Assembly (NCBI GenBank): GCA_030831165.1
Contig: JAURLP010000036.1
Coordinates: forward strand, 7,622 to 71,621
Length of the DNA stretch: 64,000 bases
From: Gammaproteobacteria bacterium
GTDB lineage: Bacteria; Pseudomonadota; Gammaproteobacteria; Pseudomonadales; Pseudohongiellaceae
Direction of reading: 5' to 3'
Shown: piece after piece, positions 14,874 to 21,585 of the stretch
Layout of the letters: every line of letters begins with the position of its first letter
How positions within the stretch are numbered: the first letter of the stretch is position 1
Notes under the pieces: model-generated
Databases searched by the model: none
Seen by the model: the letters and a program-made list of their open reading frames with translations, nothing else
What the model was told of the DNA's origin: nothing
Made by a program: the position numbers and the translations under genes

Positions 14874-16109
14874 GTGGTTAAAGCCTTTATAATTCTTTTG
14901 TTGGCTTTGGGAGCCGGTGCTTATCTTTCTATCCTCTTAACAGAAGACCCTGGTTACGTGCTGGTAAGTTTTAAGGATTATTCAATAGAAGCCACTTTGG
15001 TAGCAGCTGTAATTTCTTTATTTATATTTTATGTTTTATTTTTTGGCTTAATAAAGCTGATCAAGGTTTTTAATCCTTTCAAGCTTTTGAAAAAAGACAC
15101 GTGGTATGCATTATTTAATAAAAAAAATCCGCGAAGACAAATTGAGCAGGGTTGGCAGTATCTTCTATTGGGGAAATGGCAGGAAGCTTATAAATTGTTA
15201 GTGGAATCTGCTAACAGGGCCCAGAACCCTAGTGTAAATTATCTAGCTGCAGCCTATGCCGCATTCCAGCGCAATGACTACTTGGCATGCAACTTTTGTT
15301 TATCACAAGCTAAACAGCAGTCCTTAGTTGCGAATACCGGTATAAAAACGTTTCAAGCCTTGCTTGAGCTTAAATCAGGGAAAGAAGAGCAGAGCCTGGC
15401 GCTGCTGCTAGCGATAAAAAAAGAACAGGCAGATAGTCCTTATGTTCTCATTCTGCTAAAAGATATTTATATTTCATTAAAAGATTGGGAGCAATTGAGT
15501 TCATTGATACCAGATCTTGAAAAACATAAGGTTTTAGCAAAAGATGAATTGCTAATGCTAAAGGAAAAGCTTGCTGTGCACCGACTGCATAAAGCAACTT
15601 CGAATTCTGTAAATCAACATGAATTAAAAACTATTTGGAATGACTTTAATAAAGTATTACAGAGGCGCGAATTGGTAATAGAGGCTTATTTGAGGGCTCT
15701 TCTCACAATAGGTAACAGTGCAGAAGCTTTAAGCTTGCTAACAAAATTTATTAAACATCAATGGAGTGACAGGCTGGTAGCTTTATTAGGTTATATAGAT
15801 AACCCAGAAGCCGCCGAACAAATTTTATTGCTCGAAGCCTGGGTAAAAGACCGTCCAAAAAATGTTAACCTGATGTTAACTTTGGGCCGATTATGCCTGC
15901 GTAATAAATTATGGGGTAAAGCGCGTGAGTATTTTGAATCTGCGCTGCATTTTTCCAATAATACTGAATTAAGTGCTGAAATTAATGCTGAGTTAGGTAG
16001 ATTGTTGGAACATCTGGGTGAGCATGAAAAAAGCCTGTTATATTATCGGCAAGCGATAGGGTTGATGGAAAGAAAACTGCCCGATCTGCCTATGCCAAAT
16101 ATCTCCTGA
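14874..16109 (+). CDS. hemY: HemY-like TPR membrane protein
   Basis: Two N-terminal TM helices and C-terminal TPR-like repeats (..LGRLCLRNKLWGKAREYFESAL..). GTG start. Last gene of the hemCDXY block. Confidence 0.75.
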   Translation: MVKAFIILLLALGAGAYLSILLTEDPGYVLVSFKDYSIEATLVAAVISLFIFYVLFFGLIKLIKVFNPFKLLKKDTWYALFNKKNPRRQIEQGWQYLLLGKWQEAYKLLVESANRAQNPSVNYLAAAYAAFQRNDYLACNFCLSQAKQQSLVANTGIKTFQALLELKSGKEEQSLALLLAIKKEQADSPYVLILLKDIYISLKDWEQLSSLIPDLEKHKVLAKDELLMLKEKLAVHRLHKATSNSVNQHELKTIWNDFNKVLQRRELVIEAYLRALLTIGNSAEALSLLTKFIKHQWSDRLVALLGYIDNPEAAEQILLLEAWVKDRPKNVNLMLTLGRLCLRNKLWGKAREYFESALHFSNNTELSAEINAELGRLLEHLGEHEKSLLYYRQAIGLMERKLPDLPMPNIS

Positions 16110-16260
16110 TTATCATGTTAGGGCTCGCTAGGCTGTAATTTCAATATTTGACCTATGTCAAAATAGCTCATTTTTTTGAAAAACCATCTGTTGAAAATAT
16201 TTTTTTGTCTTCATTACTAGGCTAGTAGTATTTTAAAAAATAGTAATTAAGGAGGCAATT

Positions 16261-16686
16261 ATGCACTTAATACCCAAACATCCTCTGGCGAGTTTAGAAA
16301 GTTTTTTTGAGGATTCTTTTCCCTCTTTCAAGATTTTACCAGAGTCAAAAATCGGCAGTTCCCATCTGGCAGTAGACATTAAAGAGGATAAAGATAATTA
16401 TATTATTAAGGCAGATTTTCCAGGGATAAACAAAGAAGACATCCAGGTTTCCATTGATAATAATGTGCTTACAATTGAAGCAGAATATGATGAAAGTAAA
16501 GAAGATAAGGAAGGCGAAAAATACTTGAGACAGGAGCGTCGATATGGAAAATATTCAAGAAGTTTCAACTTGGGTGATAATGTCGACGAAGCAAAAATAA
16601 TCGCAGAATTTGATAGAGGCGTTTTATCCCTGCAAATTCCAAAGCGAAGTGTTGCGCCTGTTACCAGAACTATTCCGATTAAATAG
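16261..16686 (+). CDS. Small heat-shock protein (Hsp20/IbpA family)
   Basis: Alpha-crystallin domain: AVDIKEDKDNYIIKADFPGINKEDIQVSIDNNVLTIEAE ... GVLSLQIPK. Strong RBS (AAGGAGG) 5 nt upstream. Confidence 0.9.
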   Translation: MHLIPKHPLASLESFFEDSFPSFKILPESKIGSSHLAVDIKEDKDNYIIKADFPGINKEDIQVSIDNNVLTIEAEYDESKEDKEGEKYLRQERRYGKYSRSFNLGDNVDEAKIIAEFDRGVLSLQIPKRSVAPVTRTIPIK

Positions 16687-16710
16687 AGCAACCCCGAAAT
16701 AGGAAAAATC

Positions 16711-16745
16711 ATCAGGCCGGCTGAGCATTCTATTGCTGGCCTGAT
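16711..16745. terminator. Stem-loop between convergent genes (possible bidirectional terminator)
   Basis: atcaggcc(N18)ggcctgat forms an 8-bp stem between the Hsp20 gene and nnrE. There is no clear U-tract. Confidence 0.35.
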
Positions 16746-17452
16746 TAAATCACTTTTGATACAGAGACTCTGGCGTAGACGGCTGGTGGAACGTTTAAAT
16801 CATCAAATAAGAGTTTACCGACGAGCTTTGAGCCAGAATTTGTTGCTAGGCCGATTTTTCTTCCGATAAATGTAATGGTTAAATCTGCTTTAACAGCAGA
16901 GCCTAGAATGACACCTGTATCACTGCAAAGCCCGGAAGGGATGTCTACGGCAAGTACAGCTAGAGAGCTGCTGTTTATATCATCTATAAGATGGCTATAT
17001 GGTTCACGTACCTTGCCACTAAGGCCTGTTCCTAACAAAGCATCCACTATGACTGCATCATCTATAGTGTTTTTAGTAGAATTATTTTGTTGACTGTTTA
17101 TCTGATTAAACTCATAGGCTGGTAGAGGCTTAAGTCCCGATGATAATGCGTAGTCCAAAGCTTTTTTAGCATCCCCGAATACCTTAGATAAATCTCCGGC
17201 AACAAAAAGATCGACATCTATGCCAGATTGCTTTGCCAGGGCCGCGATAATAAAACCATCACCACCGTTATTTCCGGTTCCACAAAGGACAATAATTTTT
17301 TTTACAGTGGGCCAGTTTTTTAATAAAGCTTCATAGGCAGCTTTTGCAGCTCTATGCATAAGTTCGAAACCCGGTATATTGAATTCTTCGATAGCAAGCC
17401 TATCCAGCTCTCTGGTAGCAGCGGCAGTATAATAGTTAAGTTTTGTCATCAA
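16745..17452 (-). CDS. nnrE: NAD(P)H-hydrate epimerase (YjeF N-terminal domain only)
   Basis: TRELDRLAIEEFNIPGFELMHRAAKAA..VLCGTGNNGGDGF is the YjeF_N signature. At 235 aa it has no C-terminal dehydratase domain. Confidence 0.8.
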   Translation of the reverse strand: MMTKLNYYTAAATRELDRLAIEEFNIPGFELMHRAAKAAYEALLKNWPTVKKIIVLCGTGNNGGDGFIIAALAKQSGIDVDLFVAGDLSKVFGDAKKALDYALSSGLKPLPAYEFNQINSQQNNSTKNTIDDAVIVDALLGTGLSGKVREPYSHLIDDINSSSLAVLAVDIPSGLCSDTGVILGSAVKADLTITFIGRKIGLATNSGSKLVGKLLFDDLNVPPAVYARVSVSKVI

Positions 17453-17454
17453 GT

Positions 17455-18013
17455 TTAACTAGGTCTAAAAAAGGGAATAGCCGCACATGCGCCAAGAAAG
17501 TTACACGTGATATCGATAGCTGTATTTTCATATCCACCAACGTTCGTAGCTGGTATGAATACAGTTGCCAGAAATTCTATGATTTCATTTATACCGCCAA
17601 TACCTGAAGCGGCCAATACGGTAATGATTGATGCTGTCACTTTGGAATTCTGGTTGAGACTGGATACAACTTTCCAAATTAAAAGAGCTGCTATGAAATA
17701 GCAGTAGAAATGAACAAGCTGATCATATTTCAATATTGAATATGGTTCACCGATTAAATCAATTAGAACTAATGAATAAAGCACGCCGCCACCCACGGGT
17801 AGCAAGCCCCCCCAGAATATGAAGAACAATCCAGATATTAAAGCCCCAGAGTATTTTGGAACTGAAAGTAAAATGCTGGTCGCCTTTATGTAATAGAGCA
17901 ACCAGTACTAATGTTGTTATGTCATAAAATAAAAATTCAAAATTTTGAGAAAGTAAAGACCAGAGCAGAAGCGCGCCAGTCAGGAAGTACCCGCAAATAA
18001 ATTGAGTTCGCAT
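17455..18013 (-). pseudogene. Membrane protein (tentatively YjdF/DUF2238-like) split into two frames at a C7/G7 homopolymer
   Basis: ORF 17759..18025 (..IWIVLHILGG) and ORF 17455..17901 (..GGLLPVGGGVLYSL..KYDQLVHFYCYF..INEIIEF..GGYENTAID) overlap across the C7 run at 17807-17813. A 1-nt change there would fuse them into one membrane protein of about 190 aa. Confidence 0.55.
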
Positions 18014-18073
18014 AAAGGTCCCCAAACTTATTAAGTCATGTGATTGTATACAAATACTAGGGTATTGATTTGT

Positions 18074-18415
18074 TTATTGGAAGTAGATAGTCAGGAAAAT
18101 GATGGTCAGGAAAACGATTGCTCCGACGACAGACTCAACTGAAAATTCCTTAAAATTCTTTTCTGCATTTAGTGTGGTGTCTTCAAACATTTTCGGAATG
18201 CGTTTTGAAATGAAGTAAGGGACGTGGCCAAGAATTGAGCTGGATAGGACTAAAGGGAAAAAGAATAGCCCGCCAGTTAACATTAAAAAATATTCATATC
18301 TGCTGAGGTTTTTAATATCAATTATCATCAAAAAAGTAACTATAAAACCGAAAATAGAAAGAAACAACCCTAAGACTCTAATGAAATTTCGTACTTTTAT
18401 TTCCATATTAATCAC
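18074..18415 (-). CDS. Small multi-pass membrane protein, candidate immunity protein for the adjacent peptide
   Basis: 113 aa from the GTG at 18415, or 110 aa from the ATG at 18406. Three hydrophobic helices. It lies 59 nt downstream of the double-glycine peptide gene on the same strand. Confidence 0.5.
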   Translation of the reverse strand: MINMEIKVRNFIRVLGLFLSIFGFIVTFLMIIDIKNLSRYEYFLMLTGGLFFFPLVLSSSILGHVPYFISKRIPKMFEDTTLNAEKNFKEFSVESVVGAIVFLTIIFLTIYFQ

Positions 18416-18474
18416 TTGGCCCCTGGCAATACGTTTAGGAAATTTGCCAGAGGCATTATTATCCGCAATTTTTA

Positions 18475-18729
18475 TTAGTAAGAGCCATTTAATATCAGTC
18501 GACTGAGGTATCTGTCATATACATATGTCCCAAAACCTGTACCCAATCCCCATGCTAATCCTATCCCGGCACCCCACCATCCAGCAGTGGTTGCCCCTGA
18601 TGTTGTACCTGTAGCAGCATAACCAACTACACTACCAATTAAGCCAGTTTGTGTTGCTAGGTTAGTTGCGTCTGCTAGATACGAACCGCCACTGACTTCA
18701 CCTACTTCCTGTACTGTTAACGTCCTCAT
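18475..18729 (-). CDS. Double-glycine-leader peptide, colicin V / class II microcin-like precursor
   Basis: The leader MRTLTVQEVGEVSGG compares with the ColV leader MRTLTLNELDSVSGG (from memory). The predicted 69-aa mature part is Gly/Ala/Thr/Trp-rich and hydrophobic. AGGAG lies 6 nt upstream of the ATG. Confidence 0.65.
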   Translation of the reverse strand: MRTLTVQEVGEVSGGSYLADATNLATQTGLIGSVVGYAATGTTSGATTAGWWGAGIGLAWGLGTGFGTYVYDRYLSRLILNGSY

Positions 18730-18756
18730 GACTATCTCCTTGGCCTAAGAAATTAA

Positions 18757-18786
18757 TAAACAAAAACATCACCTAAAGCAGGTGAT
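18757..18786 (-). terminator. Intrinsic terminator downstream of ubiD
   Basis: On the minus-sense RNA: ATCACCT-GCTTT-AGGTGAT followed by GTTTTTGTTT. Confidence 0.65.
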
Positions 18787-18824
18787 ACTTTTAAATTAGT
18801 ACAGTTTTTGAATTTTTCCAGTTT

Positions 18825-20291
18825 TTAGTCAAAAATTCCGAGTTCATGCCAAATGGCATCGACTCGATCTTTAACGTCCTGACTCATGCTGATTGGGCGG
18901 CCCCATTCACGAGTGGTTTCAGCGCCAATTTTAGTCGTGGCATCGAAACCCATTTTTGAACCCAGCCCGGAAACTGGCGAGGCAAAGTCAAGATAATCTA
19001 TGGGAGTATTTTCAATAGTGACAGTATCTCTAGCGGGGTCCATACGTGTGGTCATGGCCCAGATGACATCCTCCCATTTACGAATATTTATATCGTCATC
19101 TACCACAATGACAAATTTGGTATACATGAATTGGCGCAGGAAGGACCATAAGCCCATCATTACGCGTTTGGCGTGCCCCGGATATTGTTTTTTGATGCTG
19201 ATAACAGCAAGTCGGTATGAACAACCTTCCGGGGGAAGATAAAAATCAGTAATTTCAGGATATTGCTTTTGAATGATTGGAACAAAGACTTCATTGAGGG
19301 CAACGCCAAGGATGGCCGGTTCATCAGGCGGTCTGCCAGTGTAAGTACTGTGATAAATAGGGTCTTTACGATGGGTAATCTTTTTAATGGTAAATACCGG
19401 AAATTTCTCCACCTCATTGTAATAACCCGTGTGATCGCCGTAGGGCCCTTCACTGGCCATATCATCAGGCTCAATAAGCCCTTCGAGCACGAATTCCGCA
19501 GAAGCCGGTACCTGTAGATCATTACTCAGGCTTTGAGCAACTTCGGTTTTGCTGCCGCGCAAGAGACCAGCAAAAGCATATTCGGATAAAGTATCCGGAA
19601 CCGGAGTCACAGTGCCTAAAATGGTTGCCGGGTCAGCCCCAATGGCGATACTTATAGGAAAGCCTTCGCCAGGGTGAGCTTCTTGCCATTCTTTAAAATC
19701 GAGAGCGCCGCCACGATGAGACAGCCATCGCATGATTAACCGGTTTTTACCAATAACTTGCATGCGGTATATCCCGAGGTTTTGTCTTTCCTTATTAGGC
19801 CCTTTAGTTATGACCAGCGGCCAGGTAATCAGTGGTGCAATATCTTCCGGCCAGCAGGTTTGAATCGGTAGGGTGCTGATATCAATATCAGCTTCTTCAA
19901 TGACAACTTCCTGACAAGGCGGAGATTTAATAATTTTCGGAGAAAGATTCAGTGCCTGTTTAAAAATAGGTGCTTTCTCCAAGAGGTCTTTCCAGCTTTT
20001 TGGTGGTTCGGGCTCTTTTAGAAAAGCTAATAACTTGCCGACATCTCGTAATGCTTCAACATCTTTTTGCCCCATCGCCAGGGCAACACGTTTTGTTGTG
20101 CCAAACAGATTAGCTAATACAGGGATTTTTGAATTTAAGGGTTTCTCAAATAAAAGCGCCGGGCCACCACGCCTTAAAGTTCGATTGGATATTTCTGTTA
20201 TTTCCAGATAGGGATCAACGGGTGTCTGGATACGTTTTAATTCACCCTGTTGTTCAAGTAAGTCTATGAAATCGCGAAGATCCTTGAACAT
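18825..20291 (-). CDS. ubiD: 4-hydroxy-3-polyprenylbenzoate decarboxylase
   Basis: 488 aa. [21 protein letters not shown]-terminus and full-length UbiD pattern (..[11 protein letters not shown]..). Confidence 0.92.
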
Positions 20292-20325
20292 AGTTGGTTT
20301 AATCTACTTACTTTGCAAAGAGGGC

Positions 20326-21585
20326 TTATTTGCGTTTCATCGACTGGAAAAATTCGTCGTTGGTCTTGGTATCTTTTAATTTATCCAGAATGAATTCTGT
20401 TGCAGGAACATCTTCCATGGAGCTCAGCAATTTACGTAGTATCCACATTCGTTGCAATTCTTCTTCTGTGGTTAGCAAGTCTTCACGTCGAGTTCCGGAA
20501 CGACGTACATTGATGGCAGGATAAACACGTTTTTCAGCCATCTTCCTGTCCAGATGCAACTCCATATTACCGGTGCCTTTGAATTCTTCGTAAATAACTT
20601 CATCCATTTTCGAACCTGTTTCTATCAAACAGGTGGAAATAATGGTTAAGCTACCGCCTTCTTCAATATTTCTTGCCGCACCAAAGAATCTTTTTGGCCG
20701 TTCAAGAGCATGCGCATCAACGCCGCCGGTTAATACTTTGCCGGATGAAGGAATAATAGTGTTGTAGGCTCTGGCGAGTCGTGTCATTGAGTCCAGCAGA
20801 ATAATGACATCTTCTTTATGCTCTACCAGACGTTTGGCTTTTTCAATAACCATCTCAGCAACCTGGACGTGACGTGACGGAGGCTCGTCGAATGTGCTGG
20901 CAACAACCTCACCTCTTACAGAGCGTTTCATTTCAGTCACTTCTTCAGGTCTTTCATCAATTAACAGAACGATCAAATGACATTCCGGGGCATTACGCGT
21001 AATTGCCTGCGCGATATTTTGCAGAATTAAGGTCTTACCCGCTTTTGGTGGAGAGACGATCAAGCCACGCTGACCTTTGCCAATAGGTGCAACCAAATCA
21101 ATTACCCGTGAACTTAAATCTTCAGAGCTGCCATTACCAACTTCCAGAATGAGTCTTTGGTCCGGGAAGAGTGGGGTAAGGTTTTCGAAGAGTATTTTAT
21201 TGCGAGAATTTTCAGGTTTATCAAAATTAATTTCATTAACTTTAAGTAGGGCAAAATATCTTTCACCGTCCTTTGGAGGGCGAATCTTGCCAGCAATGGT
21301 GTCGCCTGTACGTAAATTAAAACGGCGAATCTGGCTGGGTGATACATAAATATCATCAGGTCCTGCCAGATATGAAGCATCAGAAGAACGTAAAAATCCA
21401 AAACCATCTTGCAGAATTTCCAGCACACCATCGCCATAAATATCTTCGCCATTTTTGGCGTGACGTTTTAATAAATGAAAAATAACGTCTTGTTTGCGAG
21501 TGCGAGAAACATTATCCAGCCCCATTTCCTGGGCGATTTGAATTAATTCAGATATTGGTTTGGTTTTAAGTTCAGATAGATTCAT
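20326..21585 (-). CDS. rho: Transcription termination factor Rho
   Basis: [23 protein letters not shown].., Walker [18 protein letters not shown], 419 aa. Confidence 0.97.

Follow-up and report, generated by a model that had tools for sequence, protein, structure and literature searches.

An open reading frame (ORF) of 84 amino acids (aa) and the gene of a small membrane protein directly downstream of it, both on the minus strand of the 64-kb stretch of contig JAURLP010000036.1 analysed here (hereafter the window), appear from sequence comparison to form a pair in which the peptide belongs to a new subfamily of class II microcins/double-glycine bacteriocins and the membrane protein is its likely immunity partner. 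We hold with moderate confidence that the 84-aa ORF encodes a class II microcin-like precursor, namely that of an unmodified, Gly-rich peptide made with a double-glycine leader, which would be exported and act by the mechanism proposed below. It is a distant homologue of the class IIa microcins and of the class II bacteriocins of Gram-positive bacteria, and is predicted to work like them. The window organism is a member of a marine clade of genus rank, which carries the label SAR86/Pseudohongiellaceae.

The peptide precursor and its family

The precursor (MRTLTVQEVGEVSGGSYLADATNLATQTGLIGSVVGYAATGTTSGATTAGWWGAGIGLAWGLGTGFGTYVYDRYLSRLILNGSY) consists of the leader MRTLTVQEVGEVSGG, a predicted cut, and a mature part that runs from SYLADATNLATQ to ...LNGSY. 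The leader has Leu at −12, Val at −7, Val at −4 and Gly-Gly at −2/−1, in agreement with the published leader signal of 15–18 aa with a Gly-Gly end and hydrophobic residues at −4, −7 and −12 (PMC11494933). The predicted mature peptide of 69 aa contains 20% Gly, no Cys, 2 Asp and 2 Arg, and is net neutral; its core is rich in GxxxG motifs. Both its size (below 10 kDa) and its Gly content fall within the expected limits, the published Gly range of class II microcins being 12–26% (PMC11494933). The ribosome-binding site AAGGAG upstream of the gene is nearly invariant in an alignment of four species. An earlier note on this DNA, made from the sequence alone, had described an ORF with a Gly-Gly leader, a good ribosome-binding site and a Cys-free, Gly-rich mature part of 69 aa, and all of these are present in the sequence. 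When the double-glycine-leader pattern was applied to all window ORFs of 40–130 aa, the 84-aa ORF was the sole match, and the chance rate of the pattern is low (a mean of 0.03 matches per window in 30 shuffled windows).

Homologues of the peptide in related genomes, which the earlier note had proposed to look for, are present in close relatives; all are about 84 aa long and 68–88% identical, and one of them, from a genome bin named 'SAR86 cluster bacterium', bears the name 'Bacteriocin' in UniRef. The Gly-Gly and the residues at −4, −7 and −12 are invariant among 14 close homologues (14/14). An exhaustive search of 1.84 billion representative proteins with the genus profile returned 54 small proteins (52–116 aa) at E ≤ 1e-3, all of which have a Gly-rich core and align over both leader and core. 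The common leader type of this family is MRELTxxExxxVSGG, and its core type is G..G...T.T..GA.RGG..GA.LGF..G.GY..GT.IY. Among 51 aligned family members, on which the following counts are based, Leu is found at −12 in 49, Glu at −8 in 45, a hydrophobic residue at −7 in 43, Val or Ile at −4 in 50, Gly at −2 in 50, and Gly, Ala or Ser at −1 in 48. To judge from this alignment, the leader positions are kept as recognition by a C39 peptidase would require. At E ≤ 0.1, Pfam Bacteriocin_IIc is matched by 21 of the 51 members (best E = 9e-7), MccV by 17 and the NCBIfam E492 microcin model by 11. There are also weak matches to Gly-zipper_Omp (12/51), to the VP1 peptide-pheromone model (7 members) and to BlpC (2 members), and 13 members match the glycine-zipper part of CmpA.

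Genomic context was read for six distant relatives, of which two are exporter-linked and four exporter-less. P0065 (from Nitrincola tibetensis, locus L010) and P0074 (locus L013) are encoded in clusters that also contain a membrane fusion protein and an ATP-binding cassette (ABC) exporter of the Peptidase_C39/ABC_membrane/ABC_tran type, which is about 40% identical to E. coli CvaB over the full length; both clusters contain several leader-peptide genes, each followed by a small hydrophobic ORF. The genus-only profile matches P0065 at E = 2.8e-8 and P0074 at E = 7.3e-7 (among 11,470 ORF fragments). This homology to peptides encoded together with C39-peptidase ABC exporters and membrane fusion proteins bears out the earlier reading of the ORF as a double-glycine-leader peptide. 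No exporter was found in the DNA available around the four other relatives, and in all four a 51–72-aa ORF with two hydrophobic segments follows the peptide gene. The layout of a peptide gene followed by a gene for a small membrane protein, already recognised in the window by the earlier note, is thus recurrent across the wider family and agrees with published descriptions of such pairs (PMC12219008, PMC11494933). At locus L008 (10001–10500), a 36%-identical member and a 51-aa ORF are situated between fliM and fliN in a flagellar operon, with no exporter nearby.

The ColV (CvaC) leader quoted in the earlier note, MRTLTLNELDSVSGG, proved correct when checked against annotated cvaC of E. coli plasmids; the CvaC sequence used for comparison has near-full-length matches among the annotated cvaC genes of 385 plasmids, many at 100%. 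BLASTP between the window peptide and CvaC gives 10/16 identities over residues 1–16, which is 10/15 within the leader as had been stated, and shows no similarity beyond these residues. The wider family profile aligns to the real CvaC over residues 1–49 (E = 2.9e-5, among 11,470 ORF fragments). An orthologue of ColV is nevertheless ruled out, because the profile alignment stops at about CvaC residue 49, similarity to the Cys-containing C-terminal part is absent, and the window peptide has no cysteines. Microcin V/colicin V (CvaC, Pfam MccV PF17508) resembles the window peptide in its 15-residue double-glycine leader, in the Gly/Ala-rich hydrophobic N-terminal part of its mature peptide, and in being an unmodified, ribosomally made peptide with an adjacent small membrane-protein gene. 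It differs in the two Cys of its C-terminal part and in several features of its locus. The gene cvi comes before cvaC in E. coli, whereas the window peptide gene precedes the membrane-protein gene; cvaB and cvaA are adjacent in E. coli, whereas both are absent from the 64 kb of the window; ColV is plasmid-borne, whereas the window locus is chromosomal and fixed across the genus; and Cvi is 78 aa long, whereas the partner in the window has 110 aa, three helices and no sequence similarity to Cvi. A tblastn search with the window peptide against 72,556 plasmids found no match.

Inheritance, selection and the membrane partner

When one genome per bacterial species was scanned, the peptide turned up in three species only, labelled SAR86 cluster, Pseudohongiellaceae and uncultured Pseudomonadales, all of them very closely related to the window organism. 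The pair is located at the same chromosomal site in all five sampled species (5/5), and the order of the neighbouring genes is common to all related genomes: trx, rho, ubiD, peptide, membrane protein, DUF2238, nnrE, hemY. A metagenome scan seeded with UbiD yielded 80 loci, and the pair occurs only at one with 92% UbiD identity; no family member was found at the other 79, and in the nearest outgroups (UbiD 79–81%), which are without the pair, ubiD is followed by hemY after 160–400 bp. Because the gene order is the same within the genus and the other UbiD loci lack the pair, we infer that it is a genus-level, vertically inherited locus. Protein identities to the window are 95–99.8% for Rho and 93–96% for UbiD, compared with 73–80% for the peptide, 58–74% for the membrane protein, 57–69% for nnrE and 60–71% for hemX. 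The pair has thus changed more quickly than the core enzymes, at about the rate of the less constrained nnrE and hemX. These results do not fit the earlier picture of an element inserted between housekeeping genes: the pair is syntenic in every related genome, changes at an nnrE/hemX-like rate and has no mobility genes nearby, and an inserted island is rejected in favour of vertical, genus-wide inheritance under purifying selection.

The ratio of nonsynonymous to synonymous substitution rates (dN/dS) of the peptide gene is 0.05–0.2 at a saturating dS of 0.9–2.3, and that of the leader alone is 0.09–0.23; for ubiD the ratio is 0.02–0.03. The peptide gene is under purifying selection. As the leader itself is constrained, something probably still recognises it, and since this constraint has lasted over saturating divergence, a partner that recognises the leader is indirectly indicated.

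The membrane-protein gene starts 59 nucleotides (nt) downstream of the peptide gene if the GTG start is used, or 68 nt downstream if the ATG is used; public assemblies call the 110-aa form. The protein contains three strongly hydrophobic helices and one amphipathic helix, so that the earlier description of a three-helix membrane protein of 110–113 aa lying 59 nt downstream is accurate. Its homologues form 23 clusters, all at least 56% identical, and are most conserved in the second helix, the loop after it and the last helix; the gene is always directly downstream of the peptide gene. Published working criteria describe microcin immunity proteins as adjacent to the peptide gene, not longer than 216 aa and provided with membrane helices (PMC12219008). 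The partner shows all three features, its gene being frameshifted in one species, and the 110-aa protein is likely, from its sequence and position, to be a candidate immunity protein.

It had also been noted that a ubiD terminator lies about 30 nt before the peptide gene, and a terminator-like hairpin is indeed found there (Table 1). About 30 nt separate its end from the peptide ATG, and an alignment of four species shows conserved stem ends. Because its core stem is weak, this terminator may be leaky. Two short segments, one of about 40 nt between the ubiD stop codon and the hairpin and one of about 30 nt between the hairpin and the peptide ATG, together at 18745–18830 of the minus strand, are conserved across species, and much better so than the synonymous sites of the flanking genes, which indicates a regulatory element. 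A promoter scan detected no sigma-70-like site upstream of the peptide gene, its sole match being inside that gene, and inspection of the conserved segment after ubiD by eye revealed no convincing sigma-70 or sigma-54 motif. Since no sigma-70-like site was found, read-through of the ubiD terminator is taken as a working model of transcription.

The earlier note had reported a stem-loop 3' of the peptide gene, which is confirmed and is longer than described there. It has a folding energy of −18.4 kcal/mol (z = −2.5) and no U-tract in the window strain. A hairpin is present at the same place 3' of the peptide gene in all five species (5/5), in two unrelated sequence types: the type at loci L001 and L016 is followed by a U-tract and is terminator-like, whereas the type in the window and at L004 and L005 has no U-tract. 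A plausible effect of the hairpin is reduced expression of the gene behind it or a more stable peptide message.

Competing readings of the pair

In the mechanism that we propose, the 15-residue leader would form a short amphipathic helix that offers Leu −12, Val −7, Val −4 and the Gly-Gly to the peptidase domain of a CvaB-like C39 exporter. The exporter would cleave after Gly15 and pass the 69-aa peptide out via a membrane fusion protein and an outer-membrane channel, and would be encoded elsewhere in the genome. The mature peptide, a predicted Gly-zipper-type helical hairpin, would most likely have the inner membrane of closely related cells as its target, and the 110-aa three-helix inner-membrane protein would protect the producer. 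Transcription would probably occur by read-through of the weak ubiD terminator, and the hairpin after the peptide gene would probably set the ratio of peptide to immunity message.

Several observations weigh against this reading. The first is the lack of a linked exporter. Neither the window nor the loci of the genus gave a tblastn match to CvaB, CvaA or two environmental exporter/fusion-protein pairs. A Pfam scan of 20 larger window ORFs, which include all those of at least 440 aa except one of 464 aa, revealed neither an ABC exporter nor a protein of the HlyD type; the 464-aa ORF has a homologue that matches Lyase_1 (argininosuccinate lyase family). Both searches agree with the earlier statement that the window has no C39-peptidase ABC exporter or membrane fusion protein, and no other ABC exporter was seen in these 64 kb; nor does any exporter or membrane fusion protein lie within ±10 kb of three related loci. 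The usual arrangement in known class II microcins is an exporter gene close to the peptide gene (PMC11494933).

The second concerns sequence and structure models. The best curated model for the window peptide is Bacteriocin_IIc (residues 2–61, E = 0.013), with a score below the threshold of that model (15.9 versus 27.1 bits); the peptide misses every curated threshold, and it has no NCBIfam match at E ≤ 1. In the comparison with bacteriocin profiles, of the kind that the earlier note had called for, the wider family matches Bacteriocin_IIc, MccV and E492, whereas the window peptide does not reach threshold level. As the relatives match and the window peptide is sub-threshold, the support from curated models is transitive only. 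In the homologue search the membrane protein had no detectable relatives outside the genus, fell into no Pfam or NCBIfam family and was unlike known immunity proteins. Both structure models are of low confidence in terms of the predicted local distance difference test (pLDDT), namely the two-helix hairpin of the peptide (pLDDT 55) and the model of the membrane protein with helices at 7–29, 36–58, 72–86 and 90–109 (pLDDT 66).

The third lies in the condition and distribution of the pair. The membrane-protein gene of one species (L004, 6300–6660; also L099–L102, 4001–4384) is frameshifted near residue 74, with the C-terminal third replaced and the third helix lost, while the adjacent peptide gene is intact. 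An assembly error is rejected here, as at least four independent assemblies show the frameshift. Such a change is hard to reconcile with an immunity that is essential against an active toxin, unless the protein still protects with two helices. In addition, the peptide gene at L005 (6001–6255; bin Co_bin_380, Pseudohongiellaceae) has an in-frame TAG at Trp52, which may reflect a pseudogene or a consensus error and is seen in one genome bin only. Together with the absence of an exporter, the two changes suggest that some lineages can do without the pair, or that its peptide is not strongly toxic to the producer there. Moreover, every species sampled from the genus has the pair at one fixed site, whereas bacteriocin loci are more often variable accessory genes.

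This fixation at one site across the genus, together with the purifying selection, would fit a species-level trait better than a strain-level weapon, and could therefore be explained if the peptide were secreted and cleaved by a C39 exporter but had a non-killing role on its producers, for example as a signal or in stationary-phase autolysis or programmed death, with the membrane protein modulating self-sensitivity. A precedent is provided by the Nap peptides of Neisseria, which carry a double-glycine motif and class II microcin features, have a putative immunity gene and drive autolysis rather than the killing of competitors, so that self-directed roles are possible for such peptides (PMC11798529). 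The Nap peptides differ, however, in being cationic and only 16–36 aa long when mature, whereas the window peptide has 69 aa, is net neutral and is Gly-rich; and their genes are on a horizontally acquired island with its own C39 peptidase and export channel, whereas no peptidase is linked to the window peptide. The weak family matches to VP1 and BlpC also speak for this reading. Known double-glycine-leader pheromones are short, however, and the mature peptide of 69 aa far exceeds them; no sensor kinase or response regulator adjoins the pair, and the Gly-rich two-helix core resembles membrane-active bacteriocins. A non-killing role of this kind is thus considered unlikely. We are similarly doubtful that the microcin-type pair, as a vertically inherited fixture of the core genome in these free-living marine bacterioplankton and cut off from any exporter, is maintained by purifying selection for a non-antagonistic use, for example as a self-directed membrane, lysis or signalling peptide or as a kin-recognition marker between cells in dilute seawater.

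The lack of an exporter within 64 kb and the signs of decay in two species (the TAG at L005 and the reproducible frameshift at L004) could also be explained by a stranded remnant, that is, an inherited pair without a working exporter, whose precursor is not secreted and either decays slowly or is retained for a task inside the cell or in the membrane. Among microcin matches in E. coli, about 18% come from assemblies in which no exporter is detectable (PMC9746304), and a stranded gene can persist because cytoplasmic pre-microcins are non-toxic (PMC12219008). Against such a remnant stand the low dN/dS at a dS of about 1–2, with leader and core both still constrained, the invariance of the Gly-Gly, −4, −7 and −12 positions in the close homologues, and the nearly invariant ribosome-binding site and upstream region; neutral decay over such divergence would have erased the ORF. 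We therefore regard it as improbable. It is very improbable that the product is an uncleaved glycine-zipper membrane protein with a merely leader-like N-terminus, forming with its partner a small membrane complex unrelated to secretion, for although the GxxxG-rich core and the matches to Gly-zipper_Omp and CmpA are compatible with it, the leader is conserved position by position in 51 diverse relatives as C39 recognition demands, relatives adjoin C39 exporters, the profile aligns with both the leader and the N-terminal domain of ColV, and the motif is rare by chance.

The class II microcin-like reading that we favour can be set beside two further groups of known peptides. The double-glycine class II bacteriocins (Bacteriocin_IIc PF10439; NCBIfam lactobin A/cerein 7B TIGR03949) are alike in their leader and Gly-rich helical core. 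The host in the window is, by contrast, a Gram-negative gammaproteobacterium, and export would therefore depend on a membrane fusion protein and an outer-membrane channel as well. The putative class II microcins mined from genomes beyond the Enterobacteriaceae (Cole 2022, PMC9746304; Kulikova 2024, PMC11494933; Parker 2025, PMC12219008) share with the window peptide the in silico features by which they were recognised. The screens expect an exporter and a membrane fusion protein nearby or in the assembly, whereas neither is found within 64 kb here; and the mined microcins come from gut or plant-associated hosts, whereas the window host belongs to an uncultured marine planktonic lineage.

The earlier note had pointed to the occurrence of such a peptide outside the Enterobacteria. 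This is no longer surprising: class II microcins are documented as widespread well beyond the Enterobacteriaceae (PMC12219008, PMC9746304), and a UniRef homologue already carries a bacteriocin name, so the case is less novel than first thought. Mildly unusual aspects are the uncultured marine planktonic host, the genus-wide fixation at one site and the lack of a linked exporter. If the peptide is active, class II microcins would be extended to a lineage of uncultured marine gammaproteobacterial plankton, and such activity would be of ecological interest because diffusible toxins seem costly in dilute water. It would also provide a clean example of a microcin/immunity pair as a core rather than accessory locus of a genus, with its exporter far away, in a 54-member family that spans exporter-linked and exporter-less members. 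Because the class and its presence outside the Enterobacteria are already established, the gain would be incremental.

Feature positions and neighbouring genes

Table 1. Features of the peptide/membrane-protein locus; positions refer to the window unless a related locus is named
Feature	Position	Strand	Details
84-aa double-glycine-leader precursor gene	18475–18729 (stop codon included)	minus	ORF; homologues 68–88% identical; profile search; dN/dS
Leader, residues 1–15	18685–18729	minus	conserved leader positions
Predicted 69-aa mature peptide	18478–18684	minus	
Ribosome-binding site AAGGAG	18736–18741	minus	6 nt upstream of peptide ATG
Terminator-like hairpin after ubiD (A-tract, hairpin, U-tract)	18761–18793	minus	−12.4 kcal/mol, z = −2.9
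Stem-loop between peptide and membrane-protein genes	18419–18454	minus	11-bp stem (GCCUCUGGCAA/UUGCCAGGGGC), 14-nt loop
Membrane-protein gene, candidate immunity	18074–18415	minus	110 aa (ATG 18406) or 113 aa (GTG 18415)
Post-peptide hairpin, locus L001	10253–10325		
Post-peptide hairpin, locus L004	6253–6330		
Post-peptide hairpin, locus L005	6256–6318		
Post-peptide hairpin, locus L016	5808–5892		

The pair had been described as wedged between ubiD and nnrE. This holds on the ubiD side; on the other side a gene for a DUF2238 membrane protein (17455–18025, minus strand) intervenes between the membrane-protein gene and nnrE (YjeF_N family). An Rfam scan of 16000–21000 gave just a sub-threshold match to the S15 leader, away from the pair.

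Two small differences in gene content or integrity were observed among the neighbouring genes. An Hsp20-family gene (16261–16686, plus strand) is located between nnrE and hemY in the window and is also present in L096; it is not at that position in the related genome L001, and this is a small gene-content difference within the genus. One extra G in a run of seven G (CATATTCTGGGGGGGCTTG) at about 17808–17814 divides the DUF2238 gene of the window into two overlapping frames, whereas related species read CTAGGTGGC at this tract and have an intact ORF of 188–189 aa. An assembly error is rejected here as well, since three independent public assemblies, 99.7–99.9% identical to the window, share both the G7 run and the frameshift; the window DUF2238 gene is either a real pseudogene or carries a phase-variable tract.

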